DNA from: Minisyncoccota bacterium
Lineage (GTDB): Bacteria; Patescibacteriota; Minisyncoccia; UBA6257
Assembly (NCBI GenBank): GCA_028695015.1
Contig: JAQVJR010000001.1
Location: 180,498 to 244,497, forward strand
Direction: 5' to 3'
DNA length: 64,000 nt
Shown here: piece after piece, positions 14,012-51,748 of the stretch
How the letters are laid out: each line of letters begins with the position of its first letter
Position numbering within the stretch: position 1 is the stretch's first letter
The notes under the pieces: generated by a model
Databases searched by the model: none
What the model saw: only the letters and a program-made list of their open reading frames with translations
What the model was told of the DNA's origin: nothing
Translations under genes and position numbers: made by a program

Positions 14012-14021
14012 TAGAATAAAA

Positions 14022-14729
14022 TTAATCTTTTTTTTCCTCTTGCTGCTCTTCTTCCTCGCTTTCTTCTTTCTTTTCTTCTTCTTTATCAACTTTTTCAGCC
14101 TCACCTTCTACCTCAACATCTTCTACTGTCTTAGCTTCTCCTAACTCTTTCTCTAATTCTTCTTCTGAGATAGGCTCACTAATACTAGCTATTGGCGTCT
14201 CTTCATCCACTAACACTTTAACCTCTGAAGGAAATTTAATATCTTTAATATAGATTGTCTGATTAAAATCAATTAATTTAGAAATATCAACTGGAATTTC
14301 ATGAGGCAAATCTTTTGGTAATGCTTCTACTTCTATTTCATTCATTGATTTAACTAAAATTCCACCTTTAGCAATTGCTGGAGATTCACCAAAGAAATTT
14401 ACTGGAACATGAGCTTTTATTAACTTATCCATCTCCACTTCATAAAAATCAATATGTATTGGTTGACCATTTAAAAAATGATAACTTACATCTTGCACTA
14501 AAACATTTCTTACTTGTTTCTTGCCTTGTTCTTCAAATTCTAAATCTATAATGTTTGTATCTCCTGATTTTTTATAAATTGTATGAAAATCCTGCGCCTT
14601 GATTTCTAAGGGATAACTTTCTATTTTTTTACCATAAAGAATGGCTGGAATTAATCCTTTTTTCCTTAAGTTTTTATTTTTTTTGCCAAAAATATTTCTT
14701 TTTTCAGCTTTTAAAATTAGTTTTTCCAT
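14022..14729 (-). CDS. rplY: 50S ribosomal protein L25/Ctc with acidic C-terminal tail
   Basis: KAEKRNIFGKKNKNLRKKGLIPAILYGK (L25 N-terminus); Glu-rich tail. Confidence 0.8.
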   Translation of the reverse strand: MEKLILKAEKRNIFGKKNKNLRKKGLIPAILYGKKIESYPLEIKAQDFHTIYKKSGDTNIIDLEFEEQGKKQVRNVLVQDVSYHFLNGQPIHIDFYEVEMDKLIKAHVPVNFFGESPAIAKGGILVKSMNEIEVEALPKDLPHEIPVDISKLIDFNQTIYIKDIKFPSEVKVLVDEETPIASISEPISEEELEKELGEAKTVEDVEVEGEAEKVDKEEEKKEESEEEEQQEEKKD

Positions 14730-36952: not shown

Positions 36953-38323
36953 TTATTTGTTATAAATCATCTCTTTTAGGATATTTACTTCCTGAGCAAA
37001 TACTGGATTTTCTTCTATTTCTTTATTAATTTTTTTATAAGCATGAATAATTGTAGTATGATCTCGGTTCCCTATTTTTTCAGCAATATTAGTGTAAGAA
37101 TATTTAAATTCTTCTCTTAAGAGATACATTACAATTTGCCTTGGTTTTACTAGTTCTTTCTTTTTTGAATGTCCTAAAATTTCACTTTCACTTAAGTCAT
37201 AAAAAGAAGCAATCTTTTTTATAACCTCCTTAGGTGGGATATATTGATTAGTTTTATTTAAAATTAAAGATAAGATTTTCTTTACTTCATCAATAGTAAT
37301 CATTCCATTTTTTAATCGGGCATGAACGATAACTCTATTGAGGGCTCCTTCTAATTCTCTAATATTACGAGAAATAGTTTCAGCAATATATTTTAAAACA
37401 TCATCTCCAATTAAATGGCTTACTTCCTGGCTCTTGGCTTTTAAAATAGCTAAACGAGTTTCAAAATCAGGATAACCAATATCAGCAATCATCCCTCCTT
37501 CAAAACGAGACCTCAAACGTTCTTCAATTGAAGGAATGGATTTTGGTGGCCGATCAGAAGTAAAAACAATTTGTTTATTTTTTCCATGCAGATTATTAAA
37601 AGTATGAAAGAGTTCTTCTTGAGTTTTATCTTTCCCAGCAATAAATTGAATATCATCTATTAAAAGTAAGTCTAAATTACGAAAACTTTTTTTAAAATCA
37701 GTCATTTTCTGATTACGAATAGCATTAATAAGCTCATCAGTAAATTTCTCAGAAGAAGCATATTTAATTTTAAGTTTTTTATTTTCTGATTTTAATCGGT
37801 TACCAATGGCCTGTAATAAATGAGTTTTACCTAGCCCAACACCACCATAAATAAATAAAGGATTATATTTACTACCTAGGTTTTCTGTGATTGCTAAAGC
37901 AGCAGCATTAGCCAATTCATTATTAGTACCCACAATGAAATTTTCAAAAGTATATTTAGGATTTAAATTAGTGTCAGGATCAATATTAAATTCTAAGGGT
38001 TCATCCAGGACTGATGTTTTCTTTGATTGGATGGATTGTTTTTTCTTAACCTGACTAATTTTCTTAAGAGCGGTTTTATCTGTAGTTACAATGTATTCGA
38101 TTTGTTTTATTGTGGGCTCTAAGTTATAAAGAGCACCTAAGATTTGTTTATTATATTTATTTTTTAACCACTCTTTTGTAAAATTAGAAGGCACTCCTAA
38201 AAAAACAGTGCTTTCTTTAAAGTCCACAATAAAAGCGTCTTTAAACCAAGTTAAATAATTAGCCTTAGAAATATTTAATTTTATTTCTCCTAAAGCTGAT
38301 TCCCAGAGTTCTTGAAAATTCAT
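36953..38323 (-). CDS. dnaA: Chromosomal replication initiator DnaA
   Basis: AAA+ Walker A GGVGLGKTHLLQAIGN; C-terminal DNA-binding domain; divergent from rpmH. Confidence 0.95.
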   Translation of the reverse strand: MNFQELWESALGEIKLNISKANYLTWFKDAFIVDFKESTVFLGVPSNFTKEWLKNKYNKQILGALYNLEPTIKQIEYIVTTDKTALKKISQVKKKQSIQSKKTSVLDEPLEFNIDPDTNLNPKYTFENFIVGTNNELANAAALAITENLGSKYNPLFIYGGVGLGKTHLLQAIGNRLKSENKKLKIKYASSEKFTDELINAIRNQKMTDFKKSFRNLDLLLIDDIQFIAGKDKTQEELFHTFNNLHGKNKQIVFTSDRPPKSIPSIEERLRSRFEGGMIADIGYPDFETRLAILKAKSQEVSHLIGDDVLKYIAETISRNIRELEGALNRVIVHARLKNGMITIDEVKKILSLILNKTNQYIPPKEVIKKIASFYDLSESEILGHSKKKELVKPRQIVMYLLREEFKYSYTNIAEKIGNRDHTTIIHAYKKINKEIEENPVFAQEVNILKEMIYNK

Positions 38324-38412
38324 AAAATAAATTTAAATAACAATAATAATTAGTAGAAGTTAATATAAGTATAAAACAAATTAATTCTTCTTCCAAATTT
38401 TACAACCGGTTT

Positions 38413-38432
38413 AGTGGATAAAGTGTTGATAA
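38413..38432. promoter_or_regulatory. Two DnaA-box-like sites in the dnaA/rpmH divergent promoter region
   Basis: agtggataa (38413-38421) and tgttgataa (38424-38432), each 1 mismatch from TGTGGATAA. Confidence 0.45.
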
Positions 38433-38521
38433 TTAGTGAATTTGATATTATATAAAGATTTTGTTATGCTGTTTAGTACTGAAGAAATATTCCTAAATAA
38501 ATACAATTTAATTAATTCAAA

Positions 38522-38656
38522 ATGTCTGTTACTTATCAACCTAAAAAGAAAAAAAGAGCCCGAAAGCATGGATTTTTAAAAAGAATGTCCTCTTCTGGTG
38601 GTAAAAGAATTATCACTCATCGACGTAGAAAGAAAAGAAAAAAACTCAGTCCTTAA
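38522..38656 (+). CDS. rpmH: 50S ribosomal protein L34 (44 aa, below the ORF-track cutoff)
   Basis: My translation MSVTYQPKKKKRARKHGFLKRMSSSGGKRIITHRRRKKRKKLSP. Confidence 0.9.
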   Translation: MSVTYQPKKKKRARKHGFLKRMSSSGGKRIITHRRRKKRKKLSP

Positions 38657-38659
38657 AAT

Positions 38660-38692
38660 TGAGCTACTTTTAATAGCTCAAATTTTTTTATA
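38660..38692 (+). terminator. Hairpin gagctac...tagctc followed by a T-run between rpmH and rnpA (partial terminator or attenuator)
   Basis: Inverted repeat plus aaattttttta. Confidence 0.4.
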
Positions 38693-38704
38693 ATAAAATA
38701 ATCA

Positions 38705-39037
38705 ATGTTGCCTAAGAGTAATAGAATTAATTCTTCTATTATTTTCAAAGAAATTTTGCAACGAGGCCAAAGAAAAGAACATCTATATTTTAGAGTTTTG
38801 TTTCTAAAGAACAATCTTAAAAAATCTCGTTTTGCAGTTATTGTTAGTTCAAAAAATTATCGTTTGGCAGTAAAAAGAAATTTAATAAAAAGAAGAGTAA
38901 AAAATATTTTAAGAGAATTAATAAACTCTCTTCCCAAAGGTTTTGATGTTCTTATTTTCATTAAAAAAGATTGCCTTAATATAAGTTTCCAAGAGTTACA
39001 AACTCAGTTAAAAGAACTTTTACTAAGAATATTATAA
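38705..39037 (+). CDS. rnpA: Ribonuclease P protein component
   Basis: Basic 110-aa protein in the rpmH-rnpA position; RnpA-like region FAVIVSSKNYRLAVKRNLIKRRVKNILRE. Confidence 0.85.
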   Translation: MLPKSNRINSSIIFKEILQRGQRKEHLYFRVLFLKNNLKKSRFAVIVSSKNYRLAVKRNLIKRRVKNILRELINSLPKGFDVLIFIKKDCLNISFQELQTQLKELLLRIL

Positions 39038-39040
39038 AAA

Positions 39041-39721
39041 ATGATTCAATTATTAATTTATCAACCTCTGTACAATATTTTAACTGTTTTCCTAAATATC
39101 TTTCAGGGCGAATTAGGATGGGCGATTTTAGTTTTAGCAGCTTTAATTCGTTTTATTATTTGGCCTTGGCATCAAAAAGCAATGGATAATCAAAAAAAAA
39201 TATCTCAATTACAGCCAAAAGTCAAAGATATTCAGAATAAATACAAGCAAGATCCAGTAAAAGCCAATCAAGAAGTGATGAAGATATTTCAGGAAGAAAA
39301 CGTTAGCTTAGGAGGGGCTTATATTTTTTTGATCACTCAGCTCTTTATCTTTTTAAGTTTATTTGCATTTTTTAACCAAGCCATTAATAGTGATTGGTCC
39401 TCATTTCTTTATCCATTTATTAAGTTAAATACGGAAATAAACTATTTATTTCTAGGATTAATTGATTTAAAAATGCCTAGTTTAATTTTAGCTATTGTAT
39501 CTGCTTCTTTAAATTCAACCTTAGCTTTTTCTCAATCTTCAGTTGGGCAAAACAAAACGATGATGCTTCTTTTGCCTTTTATTATCTTGCTTTTTTATCA
39601 AAAATTCTCTGCAGTTGTTATTCTTTATTGGATAGGTTTTAGCTTAGTTAATATTTCACAAGAGTTTTTTATGAAATCCAGGAAAAAACAAGACATTGCT
39701 ACAAGTAATAATAAAATCTAA
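39041..39721 (+). CDS. yidC: Membrane protein insertase YidC (short form)
   Basis: Multi-TM 226-aa protein in the rnpA-yidC-jag context. Confidence 0.75.
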   Translation: MIQLLIYQPLYNILTVFLNIFQGELGWAILVLAALIRFIIWPWHQKAMDNQKKISQLQPKVKDIQNKYKQDPVKANQEVMKIFQEENVSLGGAYIFLITQLFIFLSLFAFFNQAINSDWSSFLYPFIKLNTEINYLFLGLIDLKMPSLILAIVSASLNSTLAFSQSSVGQNKTMMLLLPFIILLFYQKFSAVVILYWIGFSLVNISQEFFMKSRKKQDIATSNNKI

Positions 39722-39737
39722 TAAAGTTTTTATTTAA

Positions 39738-40211
39738 ATGAAAACAATAGAAATTAAACAATTTTTAGAAAATATTTTATCTATTATTGGGTTTTCAGAT
39801 TTTGAAATTAATATTCAAGAAAATCCTCAAGATAATTTAATACAAGTTTTTTTAAAAACTGATTCTCGAATTGATGACAGTGGTTTATTAATAGGTAGAG
39901 ATGGAGAGAATTTACAAGTTTTTGAATATCTTTTAAACATGTTTGTAAGAAAAAACGCCACAGAGATACAATGGCGTATTATTTTAGATATTAATAATTA
40001 TCGGGCAATTCAAGAAGAGAAATTAAGAGAATTTGCTAGGAAAATAGCTCATCAAGTAGCTTTAACTAATCAGATAATGGAATTACCTCCAATGAGAGCT
40101 CGAGACAGGAGAATTATTCATTTAGAAATTGCTTTAAGGAGTGATGTTATCACTGAAAGCATTGGTGAAAACAAAGAAAGACATATTGTAATTAGGCCTC
40201 AAGATAAATAA
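39738..40211 (+). CDS. jag: Jag/KhpB-like RNA-binding protein (KH + R3H)
   Basis: Position after yidC; R3H-like C-terminus RDRRIIHLEIAL. Confidence 0.7.
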   Translation: MKTIEIKQFLENILSIIGFSDFEINIQENPQDNLIQVFLKTDSRIDDSGLLIGRDGENLQVFEYLLNMFVRKNATEIQWRIILDINNYRAIQEEKLREFARKIAHQVALTNQIMELPPMRARDRRIIHLEIALRSDVITESIGENKERHIVIRPQDK

Positions 40212-40219: not shown

Positions 40220-41080
40220 TTAAGAACAAAAGAAGGCTCCACCAGTTTTACAATTAGGCATATTAATCTCAAGATGAAAACCACTTCCATATTGAGATCC
40301 TTCTGGGGAGTATTCATCTATAACATCAAAGCCAGATGCATTAGCAGCTTTAATAAAGGCTGTTCTTGTTGTAATGCCTGGGTCTTTACCAAATCCCACA
40401 TCAACACAAGTACCAATTTTATGACAATTTGATACATGATGAACTGTGGTAATGCATTCATTTCCAATAACTGAGACACAAGCTTCTGTGACCTGCCATC
40501 CCTTTGGAGCATTACTATTAACTAATTTTAATAAACTTTCAGCAACACTTTCTTCAATATAAGCTCCATTAGGAAATTCCCAACTCAATGGGATATTAGA
40601 ATATTTTCCAGAACCTGCTCCAATTAAAACAAAATCACCTACAATTACCGGCAATTGTTCCGTTTCTATTGGTGGCTTAACTGTTGTTGGTTTTGGCTCA
40701 GGTGTTGTTTTGAGAAGATTTGGATTAATTGTGTTTAGGATAAGCCAAAAAGAAAACAATAAAACAATTCCAATAAAAGTATTAATAATTCTTTCCTGGG
40801 CTTCTTTTTGTTGTTCAACATTTCCACCAGCAGTAAGATATTGAAATCCAGCATAAATAATCATAATAAAAGCGAATAATCCAGCTAATCTAAAAGCCCA
40901 TAGAACTAGGTATTTAACTAACTCTTCTATTGCATTTTTAGTTTGAAATTCAATTACCTCATAAGAATTAGTGACAGCTTCAACAACTAATCCTTGGCTA
41001 AAATTTAAACAACAAGCGAATACAATCAATAACAGAGTGATATTCTTAAAATTACAATACTGATTTAAAGACAGAAACAT
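40220..41080 (-). CDS. Membrane-anchored protein: N-terminal signal plus two hydrophobic helices (VirB2/TrbC pilin-like topology) fused to a C-terminal LAS/M15-like zinc-peptidase domain; candidate T4SS-associated cell-wall hydrolase
   Basis: Signal-like MFLSLNQYCNFKNITLLLIVFACC; helices LVLWAFRLAGLFAFIMIIYAGF and FIGIVLLFSFWLIL; C-terminal SNCHKIGTCVDV (HxxG, H-x6-D) and GFHLE (HxE), resembling VanY/M15 SxHxxGxAxD...WHxE. Confidence 0.4.
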   Translation of the reverse strand: MFLSLNQYCNFKNITLLLIVFACCLNFSQGLVVEAVTNSYEVIEFQTKNAIEELVKYLVLWAFRLAGLFAFIMIIYAGFQYLTAGGNVEQQKEAQERIINTFIGIVLLFSFWLILNTINPNLLKTTPEPKPTTVKPPIETEQLPVIVGDFVLIGAGSGKYSNIPLSWEFPNGAYIEESVAESLLKLVNSNAPKGWQVTEACVSVIGNECITTVHHVSNCHKIGTCVDVGFGKDPGITTRTAFIKAANASGFDVIDEYSPEGSQYGSGFHLEINMPNCKTGGAFFCS

Positions 41081-41088
41081 TTATTGTT

Positions 41089-41991
41089 TTATTTAAATTT
41101 TAATATTTGTCCTGGTTTAAAAAATCCAGGTAAACCAACCTCCCATTCAAAAAATCGAAATGTAGGCACAGGTATTGTTTGCACCAATTCTTCTACAGTT
41201 TGTTTTGTTGAATAAGCACCTAAAGAAGCTAATAACTCTTTTAGGATTATGGGGCAAGCTTGACCAATAGCCATGGAAACAGGAACTCCTAATCCCCAAG
41301 GAAGAGCAGTAGCTGCATTTGATAACATTCCACAAATCCAATCAACATCTAAACCAACGCCTAATAAATCTAAGAACTTATCCTGAACTAAATCACCTAT
41401 ATCACCAAATTGAAGTGCTGCCTCAAGAAAATCTGAACGCAAGTTTTCAGGAATTGGCGATCCTTGATTGATAACATTTTTTAATATGTTTTTATCAGTA
41501 ACAGAAAAATTACCTTTATCTGCTATTTTATTAAAATATCCTTGTAGCTTTTCTGGAATGTCTTTTCCTTTTTGAATAACATCTTCTACTTCATCATATA
41601 ATTCTGTTGTAATCCCAGAAACATCTGCCAAGTCTTGTAAGGTTTTAATATTTTTAGCAGCTTCAGTTTGAGCAGCAGATTGCTCTACTGAGCCCACAAT
41701 ATAAACAGGTTGTGCTTCGCCTCCACCACAACCACATCCTGGATTTAAAGGCAAAGGGTCAGTAAGAGCTGGAGATTCTCCAGAACATTTATTCTTACAG
41801 AGAGCTTTACAAGTATATTCTCCATTTTCATCATCTCGATAACATTCTTTGGTTTCTGAATTACAAGAATAACGAGCTTGGGAAGCAGCCAAAGCTTCTT
41901 TGGTTATTAATAAGTTCCAAAAAAACAAATTCACAACAAACACAATTAGAAAAAATACAGATATCTTATTATAAAAATTTGTTTGTTTCAT
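41089..41991 (-). CDS. Secreted Cys-rich hypothetical protein (T4SS-like locus)
   Basis: Signal peptide; N-terminal Cys cluster YSCNSETKECY...CKALCKNKCSG...GCGCGGG. Confidence 0.45.
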   Translation of the reverse strand: MKQTNFYNKISVFFLIVFVVNLFFWNLLITKEALAASQARYSCNSETKECYRDDENGEYTCKALCKNKCSGESPALTDPLPLNPGCGCGGGEAQPVYIVGSVEQSAAQTEAAKNIKTLQDLADVSGITTELYDEVEDVIQKGKDIPEKLQGYFNKIADKGNFSVTDKNILKNVINQGSPIPENLRSDFLEAALQFGDIGDLVQDKFLDLLGVGLDVDWICGMLSNAATALPWGLGVPVSMAIGQACPIILKELLASLGAYSTKQTVEELVQTIPVPTFRFFEWEVGLPGFFKPGQILKFK

Positions 41992-42021
41992 ATTTTTATT
42001 TATTTATTTTTAAAATTATTT

Positions 42022-42444
42022 TTATGCTTTAGAAGATTTTTTAGTAATTTTTTCAACAACTCCTTGTGATAAATAAGCAAAAATAACAGTTCCAGTGGTA
42101 ATTGGCAAAATACTAGCAATAGGCAATAAGTCTATTAATTGACCACTTAGGATTAATTTTGTTCTCATGCCAGTGATAATACTAATAAATAATATATAAG
42201 CGGAAAAAGGAAGAGCTATTAACCAAACAAAAAACTGAATTCCTGGAATTAAGCCCAAAACTACTTCTATAATATCCTTCATTATAGCAGGGATAAGAAG
42301 CAAAAGAAAGATAATAATATCCATCTTTTTTTCCTTTGGCTTTGTTTCTGGTGCTTTCTCTTCAGGGGAGGTTTCTTTTTCCTCAAGTCCTGTTGGTTGT
42401 TGTTCTATCAAAGATTCTTCTTTATTTGGTGTTTGTTCTGTCAT
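42022..42444 (-). CDS. Small polytopic membrane protein with acidic N-terminus (T4SS-like locus)
   Basis: About 3 TM segments (IIIFLLLLIPAIM, FFVWLIALPFSAYILFISII, LLPIASILPITTGTVIFAYL). Confidence 0.4.
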   Translation of the reverse strand: MTEQTPNKEESLIEQQPTGLEEKETSPEEKAPETKPKEKKMDIIIFLLLLIPAIMKDIIEVVLGLIPGIQFFVWLIALPFSAYILFISIITGMRTKLILSGQLIDLLPIASILPITTGTVIFAYLSQGVVEKITKKSSKA

Positions 42445-42454
42445 TAATATTTAA

Positions 42455-44251
42455 TTAAGACTCAGATTTTAATTGCTTTTTCGCTTCTTTAATAGCTAAA
42501 AGCTGAGCAGGATTTGAAGTGATAATTTGGTCCTCAGCATAAGAAGCTACAATTTGAATAGCCGCATGTTTTTCTTGGGCAAAAAATAAACCAGTGCCCA
42601 CAGGAGATTGCAAGAGAATTGTTTTTTCTTGCTCAGTAAGATTTAAAGCTTTACCGATTATTTCTATATTTGCTGGAGATTGGCGAAGCAATAATGACAG
42701 GGAAGAATTAGTAATAATAGGTTTACCATAAGGAGAAGCCAAGGCATCTTCAATGTCTTGAGTAATAAAGGTAACTCCTAAATAATATTTTCTAGCTCTT
42801 TTTATTAAACTAAATAAGAAAGAAGCACTTTCCTCATGATTTAAGAGCCACCAACCTTCATCAATAATAGCAATTCTTTTTCTAAGATCTTTCTTTATCA
42901 TTGTCCAGATATAGTTCAAAACAACATACATGGCAATAGGTCTTAATTCATCTGCCAATTCCCTAATGCCAAAAACAACTAGTCGGTTATTAATATCAAT
43001 ATTTGATTGTTTATTAAGAAAACCAGCATAAGTTCCTTTAGTGAATTTATAAAGTTTAGCTGCTAAATCTTCTCCCCCCTCAATATTTTCAAGAACATTT
43101 TCTAAATCTTCCATTAAAGGTGGTGCTTTTTGTTCAGTCATGTTTTCAGGAAAAATATCCCGACTGGCATAAGTTTGAATAATGGCTTGATCTAAAATTA
43201 ATTCTTCTTGAGGGGTTAATCCGCCAAGCATTAATTTAATAAGTCCAATAAGACTCAAGACATGATTTCTAAAAACTTCTTCATTTGTTTCCTCTTCTTC
43301 TTTTACCAGAGGCAATTCAAAAGGATTAATATTATCTTCAGAAGCCACAGCAATATTAAAATAGCTGCCACCAATTGATTCAGCTAAATATTGATATTCA
43401 TTTTCCGGATCAATAATTAAAATATTAGTACCTAATAAAAGAGAGCGGAGAATTTCTAATTTAATAGCATAGCTTTTCCCAGCTCCAGTTTGAGCAAAAA
43501 CTACCATATTTGCATTTGGAAGAGAAAAGCGGTCAAAAATTATTAGACTATTATTATGGATATTAATGCCATAAAGAATTCCTTTATTATCTGAAAGATC
43601 TAAAGAAGAAAAAGGGAAAAGTGTAGATGCTGGTTGAGAATTTAAAGGCGTAGTTAAAAGCAATCTATTAACCCCAAGAGGCATAGTGCTTTCTAATCCT
43701 TCAAATTCTCTAAAAACAGCAGGTTTAGCATAAATAAGTTGTTGCTCTAATATGTTTCGGATTTTACTCTCTACTTTTGAAAGCCCTTCTTGGCTGTTAG
43801 AATAAAAAGTGATATAAACACCAACATCAAATAATCTCTCACTGCCTTGTTGAATTGTATCTCTTAATTTCTCAACATTAGATAAAGCTGCTTCTAATAA
43901 AGGATTACGAACTAATCCTCTTTCAGCTTCAATATTAATCTGAGCTTGAATTTCCGCAGATTTTTTCCTTAAATTTCTTAAAACTTTATTAATATCAAGA
44001 GGATGGAAAAAGATAGAAATATTAAAAGATTCATCAAGATTAACAATCGAAGAAAACCAATTAGAGGCTAAATAATCTGGATAAGTTAAAACAAAAAGAG
44101 TAGCACAATATTGCTCTCCTAATTTAAGGTAATTTGTGTTTATTTCTAATCCAGCTGGAGCAATTAAGTTCTGAAGTGTAGAAAAAGCTTCAGTATAAAT
44201 AGCTTCCTGAGGTTTTATTTGTTTTTTCCGTGAGAAGAAAGGTAATTTCAT
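42455..44251 (-). CDS. virB4: VirB4/TrbE-family conjugative ATPase, C-terminal 598-aa part (gene split, see 44263..44952)
   Basis: Walker A VVFAQTGAGKSYAI; Walker B region IAIIDEGWWLL; N-terminal APAGLEINTNYLKLGEQYCATLFVLTYPDYL typical of Gram-positive VirB4. Confidence 0.75.
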   Translation of the reverse strand: MKLPFFSRKKQIKPQEAIYTEAFSTLQNLIAPAGLEINTNYLKLGEQYCATLFVLTYPDYLASNWFSSIVNLDESFNISIFFHPLDINKVLRNLRKKSAEIQAQINIEAERGLVRNPLLEAALSNVEKLRDTIQQGSERLFDVGVYITFYSNSQEGLSKVESKIRNILEQQLIYAKPAVFREFEGLESTMPLGVNRLLLTTPLNSQPASTLFPFSSLDLSDNKGILYGINIHNNSLIIFDRFSLPNANMVVFAQTGAGKSYAIKLEILRSLLLGTNILIIDPENEYQYLAESIGGSYFNIAVASEDNINPFELPLVKEEEETNEEVFRNHVLSLIGLIKLMLGGLTPQEELILDQAIIQTYASRDIFPENMTEQKAPPLMEDLENVLENIEGGEDLAAKLYKFTKGTYAGFLNKQSNIDINNRLVVFGIRELADELRPIAMYVVLNYIWTMIKKDLRKRIAIIDEGWWLLNHEESASFLFSLIKRARKYYLGVTFITQDIEDALASPYGKPIITNSSLSLLLRQSPANIEIIGKALNLTEQEKTILLQSPVGTGLFFAQEKHAAIQIVASYAEDQIITSNPAQLLAIKEAKKQLKSES

Positions 44252-44262
44252 AATAGTATTAT

Positions 44263-44952
44263 TTATTCATTAAGTTCTGAAGGGATAGGAATAGATTCTC
44301 TTTCAAAAGTTTCTGGATTGTATAAATTAAAAAACAATTCTATCAATTCTTTAGTTGTTAAAGGTTGAGCTTGTAAGTTCATACGATTGAAATTATTTAT
44401 AACATTGCTTTGGCGAATCATTAGTTGCTGATAATATTGGTTAAATTCATCATTAGATAAAGAAAGAGTTTTAGAAAAAGCCTGATGTTTTAAATTAAGC
44501 AGGTTTTTATATGCCTCTACTATTTGTCCAAAAATGTCTTTTGGTTTAAGGATAATAGGATCATAAGGAATCACCACATAGAATTTTTTCTTCATAATAT
44601 TGCTTTCAGTAACTAATCCTTTAATAAAAGAATGATAGTCCTCTCCTTGTAATTTAAGTAAAGTATTTGTTTCTTGATTAATTTTTTCCTGAAGAAAATT
44701 TAAATAAGAAGCAATATGAACACGGCGTGAATGGGCAATAACTTCTAATGTAAAATCTAAGTTATTTAATAAATTACGCCAATTAGTTAAAATACTAAGT
44801 TGTTCTTGTTCTGATTTTAAATCTAAATTTATTCCAGAAACAGCTAAAACAGAACGCAAGGATCCGTTTTTTAATATAACAACTCCTTTTTTAATTTGAT
44901 GAATAGAAAGAAGTGATTGACTACTAAAACTTTCTTTTTGTTTTTGAGGCAT
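44263..44952 (-). CDS. virB4: VirB4 N-terminal fragment (229 aa) as a separate ORF in a different frame
   Basis: IHQIKKGVVILKNGSLRSVLAVSGINLDLKSEQEQ...FYVVIPYD resembles the N-terminus of Firmicutes-type VirB4/TcpF/PrgJ; 11-nt gap to the next ORF. Confidence 0.55.
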   Translation of the reverse strand: MPQKQKESFSSQSLLSIHQIKKGVVILKNGSLRSVLAVSGINLDLKSEQEQLSILTNWRNLLNNLDFTLEVIAHSRRVHIASYLNFLQEKINQETNTLLKLQGEDYHSFIKGLVTESNIMKKKFYVVIPYDPIILKPKDIFGQIVEAYKNLLNLKHQAFSKTLSLSNDEFNQYYQQLMIRQSNVINNFNRMNLQAQPLTTKELIELFFNLYNPETFERESIPIPSELNE

Positions 44953-44953
44953 T

Positions 44954-45352
44954 TTATTTATCTAAAATTTCAGTTAATTTTTGAAGGGTTTCTTTATCTA
45001 AAGATTTTTGAGTGGTCACTGTTTCACTTTTCTCATGTTTGGATGAAAGAACTTGAGAAGGTTTTTTTATAACTTGTTCTTTTTGCCAAAGATAATATTT
45101 TGGTAGCCAAAAATGACGAAAAGCAGATAGAATCAGAGCATAAATTGGTTGATTATGTAATTGGCCAAACGTAAGAAATAATCCAAATGGGGCTATAAAT
45201 GCAAAAACAATAAACCAAAGCCATAATTGTAAAATAAAAAACAAGATAACAAGAATAATAGCAAAACCTAATAAAATCCAAAGCTGGGTAAAGGTAACTA
45301 ATCCCATTAATTTAGTTTCTTCTTCTATAAATTTTGGTACTTGATAGGCCAT
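44954..45352 (-). CDS. VirB3/PrgI-like small 2-TM protein
   Basis: MAYQVPKFIEEETKLMGLVTFTQLWILLGF, then two hydrophobic helices; positioned just 5' of virB4. Confidence 0.5.
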   Translation of the reverse strand: MAYQVPKFIEEETKLMGLVTFTQLWILLGFAIILVILFFILQLWLWFIVFAFIAPFGLFLTFGQLHNQPIYALILSAFRHFWLPKYYLWQKEQVIKKPSQVLSSKHEKSETVTTQKSLDKETLQKLTEILDK

Positions 45353-45358
45353 AATTAA

Positions 45359-46396
45359 TTATGATGTTTTTCCAAAAGGACTTTCCTTTTTATACTTTTC
45401 ATATTGAACCGGCTTAGGATCAAATTCTTTTTCCTTTGATCTTTTTTTCATCTCTTGTAATTTAACATCCAGAACATAAGGTTTTTTATCAGGAGATTTT
45501 TGAATTGGTTTTTCACTTGTAAATTCTTCACCTCTACCTGTTAAAACAGTAGAAGGTTCTGTTTCTGGTACTTTCTTTCTTTCTAAAGGTTTTTCTTCTA
45601 CAGCTTCTTTATCTTCTTTTTTAGATTTTAAAACTTTTTTGATTTCCTCTACAATTTTAGGTTGAGCATCTTTTTTAGTTATGGCCTCTAATAGCTTATT
45701 ACGGATTTTTTCTTGCTTGATTAATGTTGTTTCTGGCACGGTAACTTTTTTAAGCTCTTCTATTTTATTTATTGGTTTTGTTACCTTAACTTCTGTTGGC
45801 TCAGGGGCAATGTATTCAGGAATTGGTTCAGGCTTAATGATTTCTGATTCTGGAATCCTTGCTTGAGGTTTTTCTGTTTGTGGCTTAATAGTTTTGGATT
45901 GAGGCATAGTAAATTTGTCTAAAGGTTCTTTTAGTGCCTCTGGCTTTATTTTTTCTGCAATAGATTGAATATCAATTTCTGTAATTTGATTTTTTTCAGA
46001 AAGTTCTTTTTTAGGCTTTTTTTCAAAACTACCCAAAGCTGGTGTTTTAAATTGTATTGGTGGTTTTTCTTGAGAAATGGTTGGTCTAGATTTAAACTGC
46101 AGTAAGTCTTTTTTGTATTGATCAAAGATTTTATCTTGAATTATCTGATTGATAATTTTTAAAGAAGAATCTTTAATTTTTAAATGAGATTTTAGTTTCA
46201 ATGCAAAGTCATCAGAGGAAATATTTAATAAAAGAACATCAGTAACAATTTCATTTAAGATAAATAGTTCCTCTTCATTTAAACCAGCAAGAGAGCCAGC
46301 ATCTTGGATAATAGAAATAACTTTATCAGAATAAAGGGCTTCTTGGAGAGATTTTGGCAAAACATCAAACTTTTTTAAAAACTCTTCTTTTTTCAT
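45359..46396 (-). CDS. Hypothetical K/E/P-rich protein (T4SS-like locus)
   Basis: N-terminal ~100-aa folded-looking domain, then a low-complexity KPE-rich region; no TM segment. Confidence 0.4.
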   Translation of the reverse strand: MKKEEFLKKFDVLPKSLQEALYSDKVISIIQDAGSLAGLNEEELFILNEIVTDVLLLNISSDDFALKLKSHLKIKDSSLKIINQIIQDKIFDQYKKDLLQFKSRPTISQEKPPIQFKTPALGSFEKKPKKELSEKNQITEIDIQSIAEKIKPEALKEPLDKFTMPQSKTIKPQTEKPQARIPESEIIKPEPIPEYIAPEPTEVKVTKPINKIEELKKVTVPETTLIKQEKIRNKLLEAITKKDAQPKIVEEIKKVLKSKKEDKEAVEEKPLERKKVPETEPSTVLTGRGEEFTSEKPIQKSPDKKPYVLDVKLQEMKKRSKEKEFDPKPVQYEKYKKESPFGKTS

Positions 46397-48789
46397 TCTT
46401 CTTTAAAAATGTTATCCCATGTTGAAGCATCAGATGTGTTTTCTAAATCAATGCCGCTTTCTTCTCTTAATGCCCGAGAATCTTTAATGTGTTTATTGAA
46501 TTTTGCTAATGTTGCAGGATCTCTCTTAATAGATTCTATGAAGAGTTTTTGTTTTTCCTCATCAAAATATTTTGGTCCTAAACCTTTCCAAAAAGCAGCC
46601 ATTTGTGAAGCTGAGAATTTTTTAACCAAAGATTGAAAAACTTTATCATAAGCTTCTTCCATGGCTTTTTCTGTTTCATGGGGCAACCAAGCTCCTTGCT
46701 CAATTGATTTTTGATATTCTTTGTCTATAGTTTTTTCAACAAAATCTTTTAATTGGGTTTTATCTTTTAATTTATCAGGTTTTAATGAAGTTAAGGTGGT
46801 TACCTTTTCTTCTATAGAATCTGGAGTGTTAATTAATCTTCCTCCTTCTACTCTAAATTCATGAGGGATTGCTTCAGTGATAGCTTTTTTATTAAACCTA
46901 ATATCATCTTTGTGAAGATTGATGAATTTTGTAGATTCATCTCCTAGTTCTCCCATTTCTGCTAATTTATTAACCAAAGCAATTCTTTTTTCATAGGCAT
47001 TTTTATCCAATGAAGATGGTAAAGGAGCTTTTTCGAGTTGCTTTAAGCTACCTAAGCTTATATTCTCTAAGCCTTTTTCATATTCTTTAACTCTAGTTGC
47101 CTTAGCTTTTTCTCCAGTTACTAGCATTTCTTGGCCAACACCTTTTAATAAAGGAACATGGGTTAAAGCTTCACCTGCTTTTTTATACATTCCAGTTTCC
47201 TTAATTCCCTTAATTGTTTTAGCTCCAACAAAGGCTCCAGCTAGCCATCCAGCTCGACTAACTTGTTTTTGAACAACTTTTCCCACAGCACCACTACTTT
47301 GAATAGAAACAATTAACCCTCCAATTAAAAACATAGAAAAGAGAACTATTTGAATAATCATTGTAATAATGCCCAATTTCTCCTCTTGGGCGCCAAGATT
47401 TGCAAGAAAAACATTCATTTCAGATACAACAACAAGCCCTGCATACAAGGAAACGGCAAAAGTAATAGGAAAAAGACACCATCTAGAAAATTGTCCCCAC
47501 CATAAATTCCAAAACTTTTCAGTGTTTGGTAACACCCATGCAGCAAAAGCAATAGGTGAAACAGCAAGTAAGATAATAATGAGAAAAGACCGAGCAACCA
47601 TAACAAAGAAAATAGCGATTAAAGAGATGAAAACAAATAATCCAATTATACCTAAAGCAGCGATAATAAGAAGGAAATTACCCCAAGAAAGACCCCAGCC
47701 TTTTGTGCTCATCTTAATGTCTTGTCCTTCTACAGTTATAGTTTTAATTTCAGCTTTATCATCATAAGCAAAATTATATTTTTTAACGCCTGAAATTTCA
47801 TTAGTAGCAAAATTATCCATAATTGCTTGAGCAATGTCTTTTTGGCCAGTTGCTTCTTGAGCTAGATTCAAAAATACATAAGTAGTAAATTGAGAAAGAT
47901 CCAGTAATATGCCTGGTAAAATCAAACTAAAGTTAATAAGTAAAGCAATAACTATTAATTTCCAAAGAATATCTTGCCAGCGATATTTTTTAATCCCTAA
48001 AATAGTCGCAATAGCTATAATTATTAAGATTAAAACAAGGGCTAAATTCATAAAATTTCTTAAGATGCTCCAAATTGCTACTACCCCAGGATTTTTAACA
48101 AATCCTCCATAAGTATCAGGGTTTAAAGCCCAAAGAATATTTCCTGTTAATGTATTAATCATTCCACCGATCATTTTTCCAAGTCCTTCAATAGCTCCTA
48201 TTTGAACCAAACAAGCTTTATGTGCCCACCAAGTATCGTTTGCGTTTTTGTCTGATAACCATCCGAAAATTTCAGCAAACCTGTTTTTTGGATTTTCATC
48301 CCCATAAAAAAGAGCATTACAAATTTTTGCAGCATTTGATTCTTGGGCTGTGCCAACTACATCTTCAACATATCCTTCTCGATGAAACTTATCAGTGGCA
48401 ATATTCATACAACACATTCGTGGTATATTACGAACTGGACCACAAAGCTCAGCTCCTTGTACTATTTCTTCTCCTGGAAGACAAGCGATTCTGCATATAT
48501 ATCCAGCTTGCTCACAAGCAGATTTTGATTTTAATTTTTGCTGATCTACCCATGATTCATAATTAAATTTCTCAGGGACACAGCAATTGGTATTTAAAAA
48601 ACTTCCTGTACAGGTAAGCCGTGACTCAAATTTTTCATCATCATTACATCCTGGTCGACATGTTCCCCCAGCTTCAGTGCAAGAATAAGCAGATGCTTGT
48701 AAATTATTGAATTTAAAAACAGGGCTTATTAATAAAAACAAAAGGATAGTGCCAAAAATCCCAATTTTAAATACATTTTTTATTTTCAT
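46393..48789 (-). CDS. virB6: VirB6/TrbL-like polytopic membrane protein with duplicated N-terminal 6-Cys ectodomain modules and long C-terminal cytoplasmic tail
   Basis: Signal peptide; modules CTEAGGTCRPGC...C...CC and CEQAGYICRIAC...C...CC; at least 6 TM helices in the middle; 798 aa. Confidence 0.55.
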   Translation of the reverse strand: MKIKNVFKIGIFGTILLFLLISPVFKFNNLQASAYSCTEAGGTCRPGCNDDEKFESRLTCTGSFLNTNCCVPEKFNYESWVDQQKLKSKSACEQAGYICRIACLPGEEIVQGAELCGPVRNIPRMCCMNIATDKFHREGYVEDVVGTAQESNAAKICNALFYGDENPKNRFAEIFGWLSDKNANDTWWAHKACLVQIGAIEGLGKMIGGMINTLTGNILWALNPDTYGGFVKNPGVVAIWSILRNFMNLALVLILIIIAIATILGIKKYRWQDILWKLIVIALLINFSLILPGILLDLSQFTTYVFLNLAQEATGQKDIAQAIMDNFATNEISGVKKYNFAYDDKAEIKTITVEGQDIKMSTKGWGLSWGNFLLIIAALGIIGLFVFISLIAIFFVMVARSFLIIILLAVSPIAFAAWVLPNTEKFWNLWWGQFSRWCLFPITFAVSLYAGLVVVSEMNVFLANLGAQEEKLGIITMIIQIVLFSMFLIGGLIVSIQSSGAVGKVVQKQVSRAGWLAGAFVGAKTIKGIKETGMYKKAGEALTHVPLLKGVGQEMLVTGEKAKATRVKEYEKGLENISLGSLKQLEKAPLPSSLDKNAYEKRIALVNKLAEMGELGDESTKFINLHKDDIRFNKKAITEAIPHEFRVEGGRLINTPDSIEEKVTTLTSLKPDKLKDKTQLKDFVEKTIDKEYQKSIEQGAWLPHETEKAMEEAYDKVFQSLVKKFSASQMAAFWKGLGPKYFDEEKQKLFIESIKRDPATLAKFNKHIKDSRALREESGIDLENTSDASTWDNIFKEE

Positions 48790-48825: not shown

Positions 48826-49626
48826 TTATAACTTATTATTTATTAATAATAAAGATAAACAAGTCCATTGGTTTAAAGAGAGGTTTTGAGCTCTAATATT
48901 TAAAGGCAGATTAAGTTTTTTAAAAGATTTTTCAATAATCTTTTTATCAATTTTAAGATTTAAGCAAAGATTGTTAATTAAAAGCTTCCTTGGTTGTTTA
49001 AAACCAGCTTTAATAATTTTAAAAAAAGATTGTTCAATAGCCTTTGTCCTTTTATTATCAACAAAGGGAGTGATTTGTATGATTGCTGAATCTATCTTTG
49101 GTTTTGGAGAAAAAGCAGTTTTAGGTACATAAGAAATAATTTTAGCATGGGCATAAAATTGAACAGAAGCGGCTAATAAATTCATTTTTGGTGGTTGTTG
49201 AATGATTCTTTGGGCAACTTCTTTCTGAATCATTAAAATAATATCCTCTGGTTGTTTTTTCAATTCTAATAAAAGCTTAATCAAATACGAGGTTAGATAA
49301 TAAGGAATATTGCCTATAACCTTAAAATTAGATTTTAGAATTTGAGAATCAGAAATTAAAAAATCTCTAATATCTCCTTGAATAATTTTTAAATTTAAAT
49401 TGTTTTCAAATCGTTGTTTAAGGAATTTTACTAACTCTGGATCTTTTTCAATAGCAATGACTTGAGCTTTAGTTTTTAACAATGCTTGGGTTAAAATTCC
49501 TTTTCCAGCGCCAATCTCTAAAACTAAATCCTTTTCATTAATTTGTCCTGCCTTGATGATTTTATTAACAAAAGACAGATCTTTGAGAAAAACCTGGCCT
49601 AATTTTTTTTGTTTAATAAATGACAT
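48826..49626 (-). CDS. rsmA: 16S rRNA (adenine1518-N6/adenine1519-N6)-dimethyltransferase (start likely MSFIKQ at 49626)
   Basis: GQVFLKD motif; SAM-binding VLEIGAGKGILT; C-terminal ksgA-like domain. Confidence 0.85.
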   Translation of the reverse strand: MSFIKQKKLGQVFLKDLSFVNKIIKAGQINEKDLVLEIGAGKGILTQALLKTKAQVIAIEKDPELVKFLKQRFENNLNLKIIQGDIRDFLISDSQILKSNFKVIGNIPYYLTSYLIKLLLELKKQPEDIILMIQKEVAQRIIQQPPKMNLLAASVQFYAHAKIISYVPKTAFSPKPKIDSAIIQITPFVDNKRTKAIEQSFFKIIKAGFKQPRKLLINNLCLNLKIDKKIIEKSFKKLNLPLNIRAQNLSLNQWTCLSLLLINNKL

Positions 49627-49705
49627 AGTGTGTTTTGACAAAATTAGTGGCTGTGTTAAAATATTTACAAGGTTGAGAAAGAATTTTAATAAAATAACAA
49701 TTAAA

Positions 49706-50428
49706 ATGAATCCAAAATATAAAAAAATAATTATTATTCTTGCTAGTGCACTTTTAATCGGTCTTTTGGTTTTTGTTTTCTTTTTTTCAAAGAGAGGCAA
49801 AATCAAGCTTGGCTGGGATTCAGATATTTATACAGGATTTCTATTGCCTGAAAAAGGAGCCTGGTCTGAATTAGTCGTATATGATGAAGAAGGCAATGAG
49901 AGCTTGCAAAGATCAATTTACCTTGGAGAATCTTATTTGGAAGGAATGCGAATTTATGGAGTAGAAACAGATCCCAATGTAAATAATAGCACTGGTTCTG
50001 TTCTTCAGGTTTGGTATGATTATGCAACTGAAGATATTATAAAAATGGTAAGTAAGGAGAAGCAAGAAAAAGACATAATTTGTATCAATGTTCCTCTAAT
50101 GGAAACATTATTCCCTACACTTACTAATTACTTACCTACAGTAGTTACTCCGGCCAAATACAGCTCAATAAACAGATACACATATGATACATATACTACA
50201 GAAACTGGAAAAACAATTCAAACAGCTAAATTTGTAGATGATTATGAAACAGAAATATGGCTAAGCACAGAAATTCCTTTTGGAATAGTCAAAGGTGTTT
50301 ATTTACCTAATAATTTAATAGTTGCTTATCTGCGTGATTTTGGTTTATTTGGAGCTACACCTTTAATTTCTGAAATACAAGCAATTAATTGTCAACCAAT
50401 AAAATTACTAAGCGAATTATCTGAATAA
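49706..50428 (+). CDS. Hypothetical membrane-anchored protein (start at MNPKYKK)
   Basis: N-terminal TM segment IIIILASALLIGLLVFVFFF. Confidence 0.45.
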   Translation: MNPKYKKIIIILASALLIGLLVFVFFFSKRGKIKLGWDSDIYTGFLLPEKGAWSELVVYDEEGNESLQRSIYLGESYLEGMRIYGVETDPNVNNSTGSVLQVWYDYATEDIIKMVSKEKQEKDIICINVPLMETLFPTLTNYLPTVVTPAKYSSINRYTYDTYTTETGKTIQTAKFVDDYETEIWLSTEIPFGIVKGVYLPNNLIVAYLRDFGLFGATPLISEIQAINCQPIKLLSELSE

Positions 50429-50728: not shown

Positions 50729-51748
50729 ATGGTTGTTCAAAGACAAGGAGAGGGTTTTTTAATTAAGGAGAATATTAACCCAACAATTATTGAAGTCAAT
50801 CAATTAACAAAAACAGCCTATGCTTATTCAGAAAATATTTGTGTTGATGGTAGTCAAATATTAGAAACTGATTTAAATGAAAAAACTGATGAAGAATTTC
50901 CTGATTATTTTATAGTAGTAGATGAGAGTAGTTTTTTAAGCTTAAATGCTCCAACAGAATCTTCAATTCCTTTAATTTCAAGAAATACAACAGTTAGCTA
51001 TACAGTTAAAGAAGGTGATAGCCCTGGGAAAATAGCTGCCCAATTTGGCATTAGTTTAAATACTGTTCTATCAGCTAATAACCTTAATTCAAAATCAGTT
51101 ATTAAGCCAGGTCAAGAGCTTGTTATTTTACCTGTTTCTGGAGTTACTCATAAGGTAAAAAGCGGAGAATCTTTATCATCAATTGCTTCAAAATACAAAG
51201 CATCAATTGATGATATTATTAGTTTTAATAATTTGAAAGATGAAAAATCTATTCAGTCAGGACAGGAAATTATCATTCCTGGAGGAATTCTTGCTTCTAC
51301 AGGCTCTTCAGCAAGCACAACAGTGAAAACAACAAGTGCTTCTTCTTCTGGATTAACACCAATGAAAGAAGATACAAGTTCTTGGACTTGCTATGATGAC
51401 TTTTTTGCTTTTCCAGTTTCTGGTGGTTGGAACAAAGGTGTTCTTCATTACTATAATGCAGTTGACATTATTAGTTCTTGTGGTAGCCCTATTTATGCTT
51501 CGGCAGATGGAATTGTAATAGATGCTAAAGGATCAGGTGCTTATAACTTAGGATATGGTAATTTAGTTAAAGTCCAACATAATAATGGCACAATGACAGT
51601 TTATGCTCACTTAAGTGAAGTTTTAGTAAAAGCAGGAGATAAGGTTTATCAAGGAAGTTTATTAGGCAGAATGGGTGACACAGGGAATTCTAATGGTTGT
51701 CATCTTCATTTTGAAGTTCATGGTGCTCAAAATCCCTTTGTTCAATAA
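50729..51748 (+). CDS. LysM (x2) + M23 peptidase; true start probably upstream at a non-canonical codon, which would add a TM anchor
   Basis: LysM YTVKEGDSPGKIAAQFGISLNTVLSANNL and HKVKSGESLSSIASKY; M23 HLHFEVH. In-frame upstream sense codons encode LFQVVVGFFAFSFLFG with no ATG/GTG/TTG. Confidence 0.75.
   Translation: MVVQRQGEGFLIKENINPTIIEVNQLTKTAYAYSENICVDGSQILETDLNEKTDEEFPDYFIVVDESSFLSLNAPTESSIPLISRNTTVSYTVKEGDSPGKIAAQFGISLNTVLSANNLNSKSVIKPGQELVILPVSGVTHKVKSGESLSSIASKYKASIDDIISFNNLKDEKSIQSGQEIIIPGGILASTGSSASTTVKTTSASSSGLTPMKEDTSSWTCYDDFFAFPVSGGWNKGVLHYYNAVDIISSCGSPIYASADGIVIDAKGSGAYNLGYGNLVKVQHNNGTMTVYAHLSEVLVKAGDKVYQGSLLGRMGDTGNSNGCHLHFEVHGAQNPFVQ

Follow-up and report, generated by a model that had tools for sequence, protein, structure and literature searches.

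A minimal Paceibacteria type IV secretion operon beside dnaA and its pilin with a putative zinc-peptidase domain

What does a type IV secretion system (T4SS) do when its genes lie beside dnaA and no DNA-transfer genes are found around them? The question is raised by a 64,000-nt stretch of a Minisyncoccota bacterium genome (assembly GCA_028695015.1, contig JAQVJR010000001.1, positions 180,498 to 244,497), called here the window, which carries an operon of T4SS-like genes after ksgA. An earlier note, made from the sequence without database searches, had described a minimised Gram-positive-type T4SS and had favoured a DNA-uptake or host-interaction apparatus over a conjugative element. We followed this up with profile and structure searches and with comparisons to related loci and to the literature. 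Very likely, the operon encodes a T4SS that descends from monoderm conjugation machinery (MPF-FATA), has lost its link to DNA-transfer genes and serves the host-dependent lifestyle rather than conjugation.

The operon consists of eight co-directional open reading frames (ORFs) on the minus strand, from 48789 to 40220, closely packed with spacings of -4 to 30 nt; this is the set that the earlier note had placed after ksgA. The ksgA gene lies 36 nt upstream of the VirB6-like gene and is probably co-transcribed with the operon, which ends 8 nt from jag (39738-40211, plus strand). The features are as follows.

46393-48789, minus strand: VirB6-like polytopic membrane protein, 798 amino acids (aa), from family-level matches and topology
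45359-46396, minus strand: conserved unannotated cytoplasmic protein rich in K, E and P, 345 aa, from position and N-terminal conservation
44954-45352, minus strand: PrgI/VirB3-like small membrane protein, 132 aa (PF12666)
44263-44952, minus strand: TrsD/TraC-like protein, 229 aa (NF041427, PF26593)
42455-44251, minus strand: VirB4 ATPase, CD1110 family, 598 aa (NF045971)
42022-42444, minus strand: conserved unannotated protein with three transmembrane (TM) segments, 140 aa, from these segments and position
41089-41991, minus strand: secreted or anchored Cys-rich protein, 300 aa, from composition and from fusion/fission with the pilin
40220-41080, minus strand: pilin with a peptidase-like domain, 286 aa (PF18895 and a C-terminal zinc motif)
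40715-40942, minus strand: VirB2-like T4SS pilin domain, aa 47-122 of the 286-aa protein (PF18895, NF045849)
40223-40642, minus strand: putative Hedgehog/DD-peptidase (LAS)-like zinc-peptidase domain, aa 147-286 of the 286-aa protein
48826-49806, minus strand: ksgA/rsmA, from orthologues with PF00398 RrnaAD; the listed ORF is over-extended at a TTG start
36953-40211: dnaA (minus strand, 36953-38323), then rnpA, yidC and jag (plus strand), the downstream boundary
35548-36684: dnaN, beyond dnaA

The same eight gene calls were made in independent assemblies of identical sequence (NCBI GCA_040364315.1, ENA and Logan), which excludes an assembly artefact as the source of the ORF structure. The exact VirB4 sequence is recorded on 13 contigs, the longest displayed being a 100-kb contig of GCA_040364315.1, and the calls agreed on the three contigs displayed, apart from a two-residue difference in the 140-aa ORF of one.

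For comparison, we scanned with a VirB4 alignment, using one genome per species, and obtained at least 582 matches. The best 80 loci and five exact look-ups make up the 85 loci, from about 80 species, to which the counts below refer. Gene order was rebuilt by iterated profile searches, and many loci end at contig ends, so that the counts are lower bounds.

The 598-aa protein is the VirB4 ATPase, the signature motor of the system. It scored 357.8 bits against NF045971 (VirB4-like, CD1110 family, NCBIfam; E 1e-106), above the curated cut-off of 325, and thus passed the kind of profile threshold on which the earlier note had made this assignment depend. It also exceeded the Pfam cut-offs for PF19044, PF12846 and PF01935 (P-loop_TraG, AAA_10 and DUF87), and the Walker A (GAGKS) and Walker B (DE) residues G256, G258, K259, S260, D464 and E465 were invariant among its relatives. 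The best 120 database matches listed were 55-99% identical, those with a name being Paceibacteria or Patescibacteria; the closest plasmid VirB4s, from monoderm plasmids, were 27-31% identical.

VirB4 had been read as one gene in two ORFs. The larger ORF is indeed VirB4, but what looked like a split gene is a conserved pair, TrsD and VirB4. Profile matches support, at family level, the assignment of the 229-aa protein as TrsD/TraC-like, a free-standing homologue of the VirB4 N-terminal domain: it matched NF041427 TrsD (E 1.4e-8) and the VirB4 N-terminal regions of NF045975 and NF045971, all below the full-length cut-offs, and a precomputed PF26593 TraC-like match is recorded for the exact protein. 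The TrsD ORF stops at TAA, and the VirB4 ORF begins 11 nt later in a different frame. In 74 loci TrsD has an ORF of its own just upstream of virB4, and in a few the two are fused (790 aa in locus L017, 786 aa in L022). Two other causes of the split were ruled out: a frameshifted VirB4 pseudogene, by the retention of the pair in 74 loci and in independent assemblies, and an alternative genetic code (UGA=Gly), by the TAA stop and the change of frame.

The 132-aa protein matched PF12666 PrgI at 24 bits, just below the cut-off of 27 (E 5.9e-5). Its family gives firmer ground for the VirB3/PrgI-like label that it had received, as 61 of 62 positional orthologues matched PF12666 (best 9.7e-14) and 10 also matched TcpE. 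The prgI gene is directly upstream of TrsD/VirB4 in 75 of the 85 loci.

The 798-aa protein has a signal or TM segment, a Cys-rich N-terminal ectodomain with 14 Cys, at least five further TM segments (aa 246-496) and a hydrophilic C-terminal domain of about 300 aa, a topology consistent with a VirB6/TrbL-type polytopic channel protein. PF04610 TrbL was matched by 10 of 47 orthologues (best 6.7e-10) and TrbL_4 by one, and the orthologue in L004 carries PF19590 TrbL_3. The family profile weakly matched TrwI/VirB6 of plasmid R388 (7o3v_F, E 0.006) over the TM region. These similarities support an extended VirB6-like protein at family level.

As a separate observation, the extracellular N-terminal region of this protein holds two tandem six-Cys modules (aa 37-127; 48409-48681, minus strand) of near-identical spacing, C-x6-C-x3-C-x11/12-C-x8/9-CC, which we take to resemble beta-defensin-type patterns. 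Among the 85 loci, they occur in the window protein only.

Across Paceibacteria the consensus order is ksgA, two paralogous unknowns that are not always present, the VirB6-like gene, the 345-aa family, PrgI, TrsD, VirB4, the 3-TM family, an unknown of about 320 aa, the pilin-domain protein, an unknown of about 390 aa, jag, yidC, rnpA and dnaA. Homologues of VirB4 were present in 85 of the 85 loci, of TrsD in 82, of PrgI in 75, of the pilin in 61, of the 345-aa family in 58, of the VirB6-like protein in 57 and of the 3-TM family in 44. ksgA was upstream of the module in 37 loci, and dnaA, rnpA, yidC and jag bounded it in 40-49 of the 85, many of the others being cut by contig ends. As the VirB4s of these loci are 50% to 87% identical to that of the window and the order is the same, the arrangement is old. 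That about 80 Paceibacteria species have this order, and at one and the same chromosomal site, indicates a core machine passed on by vertical descent rather than a mobile element in decay. Absence or loss of synteny in relatives, which the earlier note had named as evidence for a degraded element, is decisively not what we found.

The sub-clade of the window (loci L001, L004 and L008) is without the two upstream paralogues and the ~390-aa gene; where other loci have the ~320-aa family it has the 300-aa Cys-rich family, with no detectable relation between the two. In other Paceibacteria loci, the paralogue pair lies between ksgA and the VirB6-like gene (42 loci), the ~320-aa protein after the 3-TM gene (48 loci) and the ~390-aa protein after the pilin (46 loci); examples are L002 (3484-5805, 12203-12892 and 13636-14748), L020 and L057. 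These accessory families had no Pfam or PDB match.

We searched the operon proteins, the 30 largest other window ORFs (by Pfam) and the next 10 kb, read from a contig that carries an identical protein from the window end, and found no VirD4/TcpA coupling protein, relaxase or VirB11, in agreement with the earlier note. The Pfam scans of the 30 ORFs recognised housekeeping genes only, such as recA, ftsK, gyrB, pheST, tyrS, PBP1A, dnaN, clpP, tig, nusA and ribosomal protein genes; its gamma domain marks the FtsK at 9588-11738 as the housekeeping translocase. Pfam scans of the window ORFs gave no integrase, there were no flanking att-like repeats beyond chance AT-rich matches, and the nearest tRNAs are at least 3.5 kb outside the module. 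A relaxase with a type IV coupling protein (T4CP), or signs of integration, as expected of a conjugative element, were thus not seen in the window and the next 10 kb.

The last gene of the operon had been described as a membrane-anchored peptidase. Its C-terminal domain is peptidase-like, but the protein is a T4SS pilin and not merely an anchored peptidase: it scored 50.3 bits against PF18895 T4SS_pilin (cut-off 26.6) and matched NF045849 pilin-like (E 3.7e-7). The earlier note had overlooked this VirB2-like pilin, a hallmark that separates the system from Gram-positive T4SSs. The pilin domain forms a two-helix membrane hairpin after the signal peptide. An AlphaFold2 model placed the helices at residues 47-83 and 88-118, with a predicted local distance difference test (pLDDT) score of about 90; the mean pLDDT of the model was 79.9, with values above 90 over most of residues 150-286. 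A Pro/Thr-rich linker joins the hairpin to a C-terminal domain of about 140 aa, which is predicted to be extracellular, and 36 homologues align over the full length. Like diderm VirB2/TrbC pilins, the protein combines a signal peptide with a two-helix hydrophobic hairpin, matches PF18895 and is encoded near VirB4; some of its relatives weakly match PF04956 TrbC. A pilin-domain gene occupies this position in 61 of the 85 loci.

The C-terminal domain resembles zinc peptidases of the LAS group. C219, H220, G223, D227, E256 and G267 were invariant and six Cys were conserved in the alignment of the 36 homologues. H220, D227 and E256, which belong to a zinc-ligand triad H-x6-D...H plus Glu, were invariant in both alignments of the domain (A2 and A7); H269 was invariant in A2 and nearly so in A7. 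A divergent subgroup has E-G-N-H-L-H at the last motif. When the domain profile was compared with all PDB sequences, Hedgehog N-domains were the top 13 and most of the 28 matches, weakly (E 0.05-0.6). The alignment placed CHxxGTCVD on LHYEGRAVD, which presumably carries the Sonic hedgehog (Shh) zinc ligands His141 and Asp148, and the conserved Glu on the Shh YYE segment, whose Glu we take to be Glu177. M15 peptidases have the signatures SxHxxGxAxD and ExxH, which CHxxGTCVD and E-x-x-H of the pilin domain resemble. As a single sequence the domain matched nothing in the PDB, only the family profile pointing to Hedgehog, and the Pfam M15 and Hedgehog models gave no match, either at E up to 1 for the window protein or at E up to 0.05 for nine pilin fusions related to it. 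We infer a Hedgehog/DD-peptidase (LAS)-like zinc domain with putative enzymatic activity. It shares the H-x6-D...H triad and a Glu aligned to Shh E177 with LAS enzymes, that is, the Shh N-domain, VanX/VanY/VanXYc (MEROPS M15) and the Streptomyces Zn D-Ala-D-Ala carboxypeptidase, but differs from them in being Cys-rich (the six conserved Cys) and a C-terminal appendage of T4SS pilins only. An exhaustive HMMER search of 1.84 billion representative proteins returned only 14 relatives of the domain. Ten were scanned, and all nine genuine ones carry an N-terminal T4SS_pilin domain; judging from these relatives, the family seems to exist only as a pilin appendage.

Across the wider loci the pilin-domain proteins range from 99 to 1231 aa, their extensions being without any Pfam family; Pfam searches with 10 other pilin proteins that have long C-terminal extensions found the pilin domain only. 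The pilin-domain genes of L014, L024, L032, L046, L055 and L082 vary in size, with N- or C-terminal extensions, and L046, L055, L079 and L082 have two to four consecutive pilin genes. This variation suggests a role for the pilin hairpin as a carrier on which different surface domains are mounted. Public labels appear unreliable here: a fragment that matches the window pilin at 100% identity is named 'Bacteroidales bacterium' (proteins P0122 and P0123), several Paceibacteria-type loci (L071, L079 and L084) are titled Bdellovibrionales or Saccharibacteria, and many records read 'uncultured Candidatus Saccharibacteria'; such labels probably reflect mis-binning or automatic taxonomy.

The 300-aa protein fits its earlier description as a secreted Cys-rich protein, with an N-terminal hydrophobic segment and nine Cys. 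Its structural model was moderate (pLDDT 65.8) and contains an N-terminal hydrophobic helix, a small Cys-rich beta-hairpin/helix module, a disordered linker and a helical domain (102-256). The conserved, poorly modelled C-terminus ends in ...WEVGLPGFFKPGQILKFK and includes the motif WEVGLPG; a motif of the type [WF]-E-[VT]-G-[ILV]-P stands directly before the first pilin helix in many pilin proteins. Locus L008 is without a separate Cys-rich gene and encodes instead one 479-aa protein of four parts, namely the Cys-rich N-terminal 115 profile positions (E 2.8e-29), the C-terminal motif (E 9.6e-10), the pilin domain and the peptidase-like domain. As Cys-rich protein and pilin are one polypeptide in L008, this fusion/fission indicates that the 300-aa protein works with the pilin. 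It had no match to a Pfam, NCBIfam or PDB sequence family. It was also considered as a VirB5-type minor pilin or adhesin, and neither the helical-bundle fold of VirB5/TraC nor their sequence family was recognised in it; a relation to the ~320-aa family at the same position, or to other accessory families, was rejected on hhalign probabilities below 1%.

The 345-aa and 140-aa proteins agree with their earlier descriptions as a K/E/P-rich protein and a small 3-TM protein. The former is 39.7% K+E+P and has no TM segment; a helical N-terminal domain of about 100 aa, to which conservation in the family is limited, precedes a K/E/P-rich tail that is probably disordered. Its family, recognised in 58 loci after profile iteration, is always between the VirB6-like gene and prgI, and no Pfam, NCBIfam or PDB sequence relative was found. 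The 140-aa protein has three TM segments and a charged N-terminal tail, and a homologue lies directly 3' of virB4 in 44 of the 85 loci; searches with 41 members gave no Pfam or PDB relative, and the window protein had no NCBIfam match. Both families keep their position as well as the recognised components do, which makes them good candidates for structural parts that are still missing, for instance an unrecognised VirB8-type component. The earlier note had put forward three unassigned members as novel structural components. For these two the proposal holds in that they are conserved and unannotated, whereas the third, the 300-aa protein, is lineage-specific and linked to the pilin by fusion.

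The locus is a straightforward member of the published T4SSs that most of the ultra-small Patescibacteria have, and no new system. These T4SSs are the subject of two papers, by Wang et al. in 2023 (PMC10633639) and by Quiñonero-Coronel et al. in 2025 (PMC12102498). In the first, transposon sequencing (Tn-seq) identified an unusual Gram-positive-like T4SS (SEML1_0006-0019) as essential for the epibiotic growth of Southlakia epibionticum, with essential pilin genes and without a recognisable coupling protein or relaxase. The second, a phylum-wide survey, found VirB4 in 2,417 of 3,035 Patescibacteria genomes, as a monophyletic clade nested in MPF-FATA, with TrsD as the most abundant component, PrgI-type VirB3, VirB6, VirB2-like pilins (PF18895) and few relaxases. 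It located Paceibacteria T4SSs near dnaA, dnaN, rnpA, ksgA and rpmH, which its authors read as a gene-dosage effect. The system, including its position by dnaA, rnpA and ksgA, was thus already described. The window shares with the systems of both papers an MPF-FATA/CD1110-type VirB4, a separate TrsD, PrgI/VirB3, a VirB6-like protein, a PF18895 pilin, the lack of a nearby relaxase or T4CP, and the site by dnaA, rnpA and ksgA that is typical of Paceibacteria. It differs in having a single pilin gene rather than an array of 2-11, and in the Hedgehog/DD-peptidase-like C-terminal domain of its pilin, of which we found no mention in the parts of the two papers that we consulted. From most other Paceibacteria loci it differs, with its sub-clade, in being without the three accessory families and having the lineage-specific Cys-rich protein instead. 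Essentiality was shown by Tn-seq in S. epibionticum, whereas the organism of the window is uncultured. Apparently unreported, as far as those parts of the papers go, are the pilin-peptidase fusion, the fusion/fission of pilin and Cys-rich protein, and the conserved but unannotated 345-aa and 140-aa families.

With monoderm MPF-FATA systems (pCF10 Prg, pGO1/pSK41 Trs and Clostridium CTn2/CD1110-type), the operon shares the PrgI-VirB4 adjacency, the lack of an outer-membrane core (VirB7/9/10), a TrsD-type free N-terminal domain as in the pGO1 subclass, and a wall hydrolase, here a putative one, encoded next to VirB4. Unlike them, it has a split VirB4 only 27-31% identical to theirs, no adjacent relaxase, MobC or VirD4, and a VirB2-like pilin, which Gram-positive systems do not have; instead of a large SLT/CHAP VirB1 it has a putative hydrolase of LAS type, a small domain attached to the pilin, and it occupies a fixed chromosomal site rather than a plasmid or an integrated conjugative element. 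The order in Clostridium perfringens pSXP-169_2 is mobC, relaxase, DUF3801, VirD4, two hypothetical genes, PrgI, unsplit VirB4 and SLT hydrolase. Set beside it, the gene content of the operon shows PrgI-VirB4 and a putative wall hydrolase as kept and the DNA-processing genes as lost. The matches of VirB4, PrgI and TrsD, the family-level matches of VirB6 and the literature thus uphold the resemblance to a minimised Gram-positive-type T4SS.

Host interaction rather than conjugation is our best guess for the function, and three other explanations were weighed. An apparatus importing DNA or nutrients like Helicobacter ComB or archaeal Ced, feeding the cell with host nucleotides or other building blocks, we regard as unlikely. 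Patescibacteria are without nucleotide synthesis; comEC is dispensable in S. epibionticum, so that another route is needed, for which the T4SS has been proposed as a candidate (PMC11665869); and in class ABY1 the T4SS co-localises with comF, recG and radA (PMC12102498). VirB4 also has a weak CedB match, but the scores against NF041017 CedB (47.8 bits) and NF053655 CedD (15.8 bits) are far below the cut-offs of 700 and 600, do not make it a Ced member and reflect generic VirB4/HerA P-loop similarity only. No competence genes lie beside the module in the window, and the direction of transport is not readable from sequence. Import moreover overlaps with a host-lifestyle apparatus and is compatible with it.

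That the operon is a working machine for conjugation or DNA export, with the genes for its coupling protein and for a divergent relaxase in other parts of the genome, appears quite improbable. The survey (PMC12102498) reports VirD4-like T4CPs in 2,918 Patescibacteria genomes, mostly far from virB4, and considers that very different relaxases might remain undiscovered; our inspection of this genome covered 64 kb plus 10 kb. Against this, the survey counted only 109 relaxases, in 103 of 3,035 genomes; the T4CP homologue was not essential in S. epibionticum, whereas other T4SS genes were; and the site is chromosomal and fixed, 99.3% of VirB4s having their closest homologue in the same class (PMC12102498). 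No oriT-like or mobility genes were found nearby in scans of the window and the next 10 kb.

A decaying remnant of an integrated conjugative element, inserted near the origin, with relaxase, coupling protein and integrase lost and VirB4 split by a frameshift, would fit the lack of a relaxase and T4CP in the window and the closest non-patescibacterial VirB4s (27-31% identical), which lie on monoderm conjugative plasmids with PrgI-VirB4 adjacency beside relaxase and VirD4, but it is contradicted by the synteny in about 80 species at one chromosomal site, with VirB4 identities of 50% to 99%, by the separate TrsD of 74 loci, which makes the split ancestral and maintained, by the intact Walker motifs, by the lack of att-like repeats, integrase, border tRNA and GC anomaly, and by the essentiality of the homologous system in S. 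epibionticum (PMC10633639), and we hold it to be very improbable.

Several points weigh against the host-lifestyle T4SS that we prefer, or against parts of it. VirB4 was placed by pairwise database matches. The VirB6-like label given in the earlier note stands at family level, but the window protein itself falls below HMM (hidden Markov model) thresholds, with E 0.59 for Pfam TrbL and 32 bits for NF045848 against a cut-off of 90. Other parts of the genome could encode a T4CP or a relaxase, and VirD4 homologues exist in most Patescibacteria genomes, far from virB4 (PMC12102498). Foldseek searches of the PDB with the full pilin-peptidase model gave only spurious helical and histidine-kinase matches, and a pilin bearing a 140-aa domain might not polymerise. 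The role of the T4SS has been called 'completely unknown' even in Saccharibacteria (PMC11665869); reviews speculate on effector delivery or uptake of host molecules (PMC11665869, PMC12857230). The preference expressed in the earlier note for a host-interaction or uptake apparatus over a conjugative element is supported by the lack of DNA-transfer genes nearby and by the literature.

From established T4SS knowledge, TrsD and VirB4 of such a host-lifestyle apparatus would dock on PrgI and the VirB6-like protein at the cytoplasmic membrane, TrsD supplying the VirB4 N-terminal domain in trans. ATP hydrolysis by VirB4 would pull pilin subunits from the membrane into a short pilus or conduit across the wall, drive substrate passage, or both. 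Each pilin would expose its extracellular Hedgehog/DD-peptidase-type zinc domain on the flexible Pro/Thr linker and might locally cleave peptidoglycan peptide stems, either in the cell's own wall, where it would substitute for a VirB1 (no recognisable gene for which lies inside the operon), or in the host cell wall. The Cys-rich 300-aa protein would act with the pilin, and the apparatus could support host-dependent life by making contact, by exporting effectors or by importing host molecules; its cargo, like the direction of transport, cannot be read from the genes. More speculatively, and with considerable doubt, the pilin of this sub-clade may be a wall-breaching tool, an enzyme-coated growing pilus that would digest the peptidoglycan cross-links of its own wall and perhaps also those of the host wall, with the Cys-rich protein as cap or adhesin and the variable pilins of other loci as modular carriers of host-specific surface activities. 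We know of no description of a wall-breaching role for conjugative pilins.

The operon had also been said to lie next to the origin. Its proximity rests on dnaA, dnaN, rnpA, yidC and jag, all 0-4 kb from the module, whereas DnaA-box matches did not exceed the shuffled expectation and the GC-skew minimum of the window is broad. With an origin in the dnaA-rnpA spacer, transcription of the entire T4SS operon would run towards it and meet replication head-on; the orientation towards dnaA is the same in all related loci with enough flank. Promoter and terminator scans did not rise above shuffled expectation either, and an Rfam scan found tRNAs only. The window is about 30% G+C throughout, and the module (0.29-0.33) does not stand out.

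Two genes beyond ksgA, 50729-51748 (plus strand) encodes a LysM-LysM-Peptidase_M23 wall hydrolase (Pfam LysM 2.8e-30, Peptidase_M23 3e-28). The gene is at the same position in L001 and L004 (Pfam-annotated) and probably in L008 (an unannotated 377-aa ORF). It is a possible VirB1-type accessory whose membership in the system is uncertain; VirB1-profile matches with M23/LysM domains, and VirB1 homologues associated with virB4 in Paceibacteria, are on record (PMC12102498). Divergent from ksgA, 49553-50428 (plus strand) encodes a membrane-anchored protein with a probable true start near 49706, and overlaps the over-extended TTG start of ksgA. It was tried as a T4SS accessory and rejected, its weak matches to two accessory-family HMMs (E 4e-5 and 3e-4) being probably TM-driven; an iterative search gave a single true homologue, in L001, and there was no Pfam match. 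Elsewhere in the window, 21495-24914 (minus strand) encodes a large protein of 1139 aa, probably at the surface, which has two Lamin Tail Domain (LTD) matches and no other annotation, and 12527-14104 (minus strand) a 525-aa protein with an SLT_2 lytic transglycosylase domain, 26 kb from the T4SS, which is a candidate wall-remodelling enzyme. The 517-aa protein of 1149-2702 and the 388-aa protein of 52769-53935 (both minus strand) had no Pfam match at E <=0.001.

Patescibacteria are very abundant and mostly uncultured, and few machines are known that are essential to their host-attached life; the T4SS is one of them. The window provides a clean minimal example from Paceibacteria, with eight genes and a single pilin. 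The leads that it offers, namely the fusion of a pilin with a putative zinc domain, the link between Cys-rich protein and pilin and the two unannotated families, matter mainly for T4SS architecture or for candidate phyla radiation (CPR) biology.

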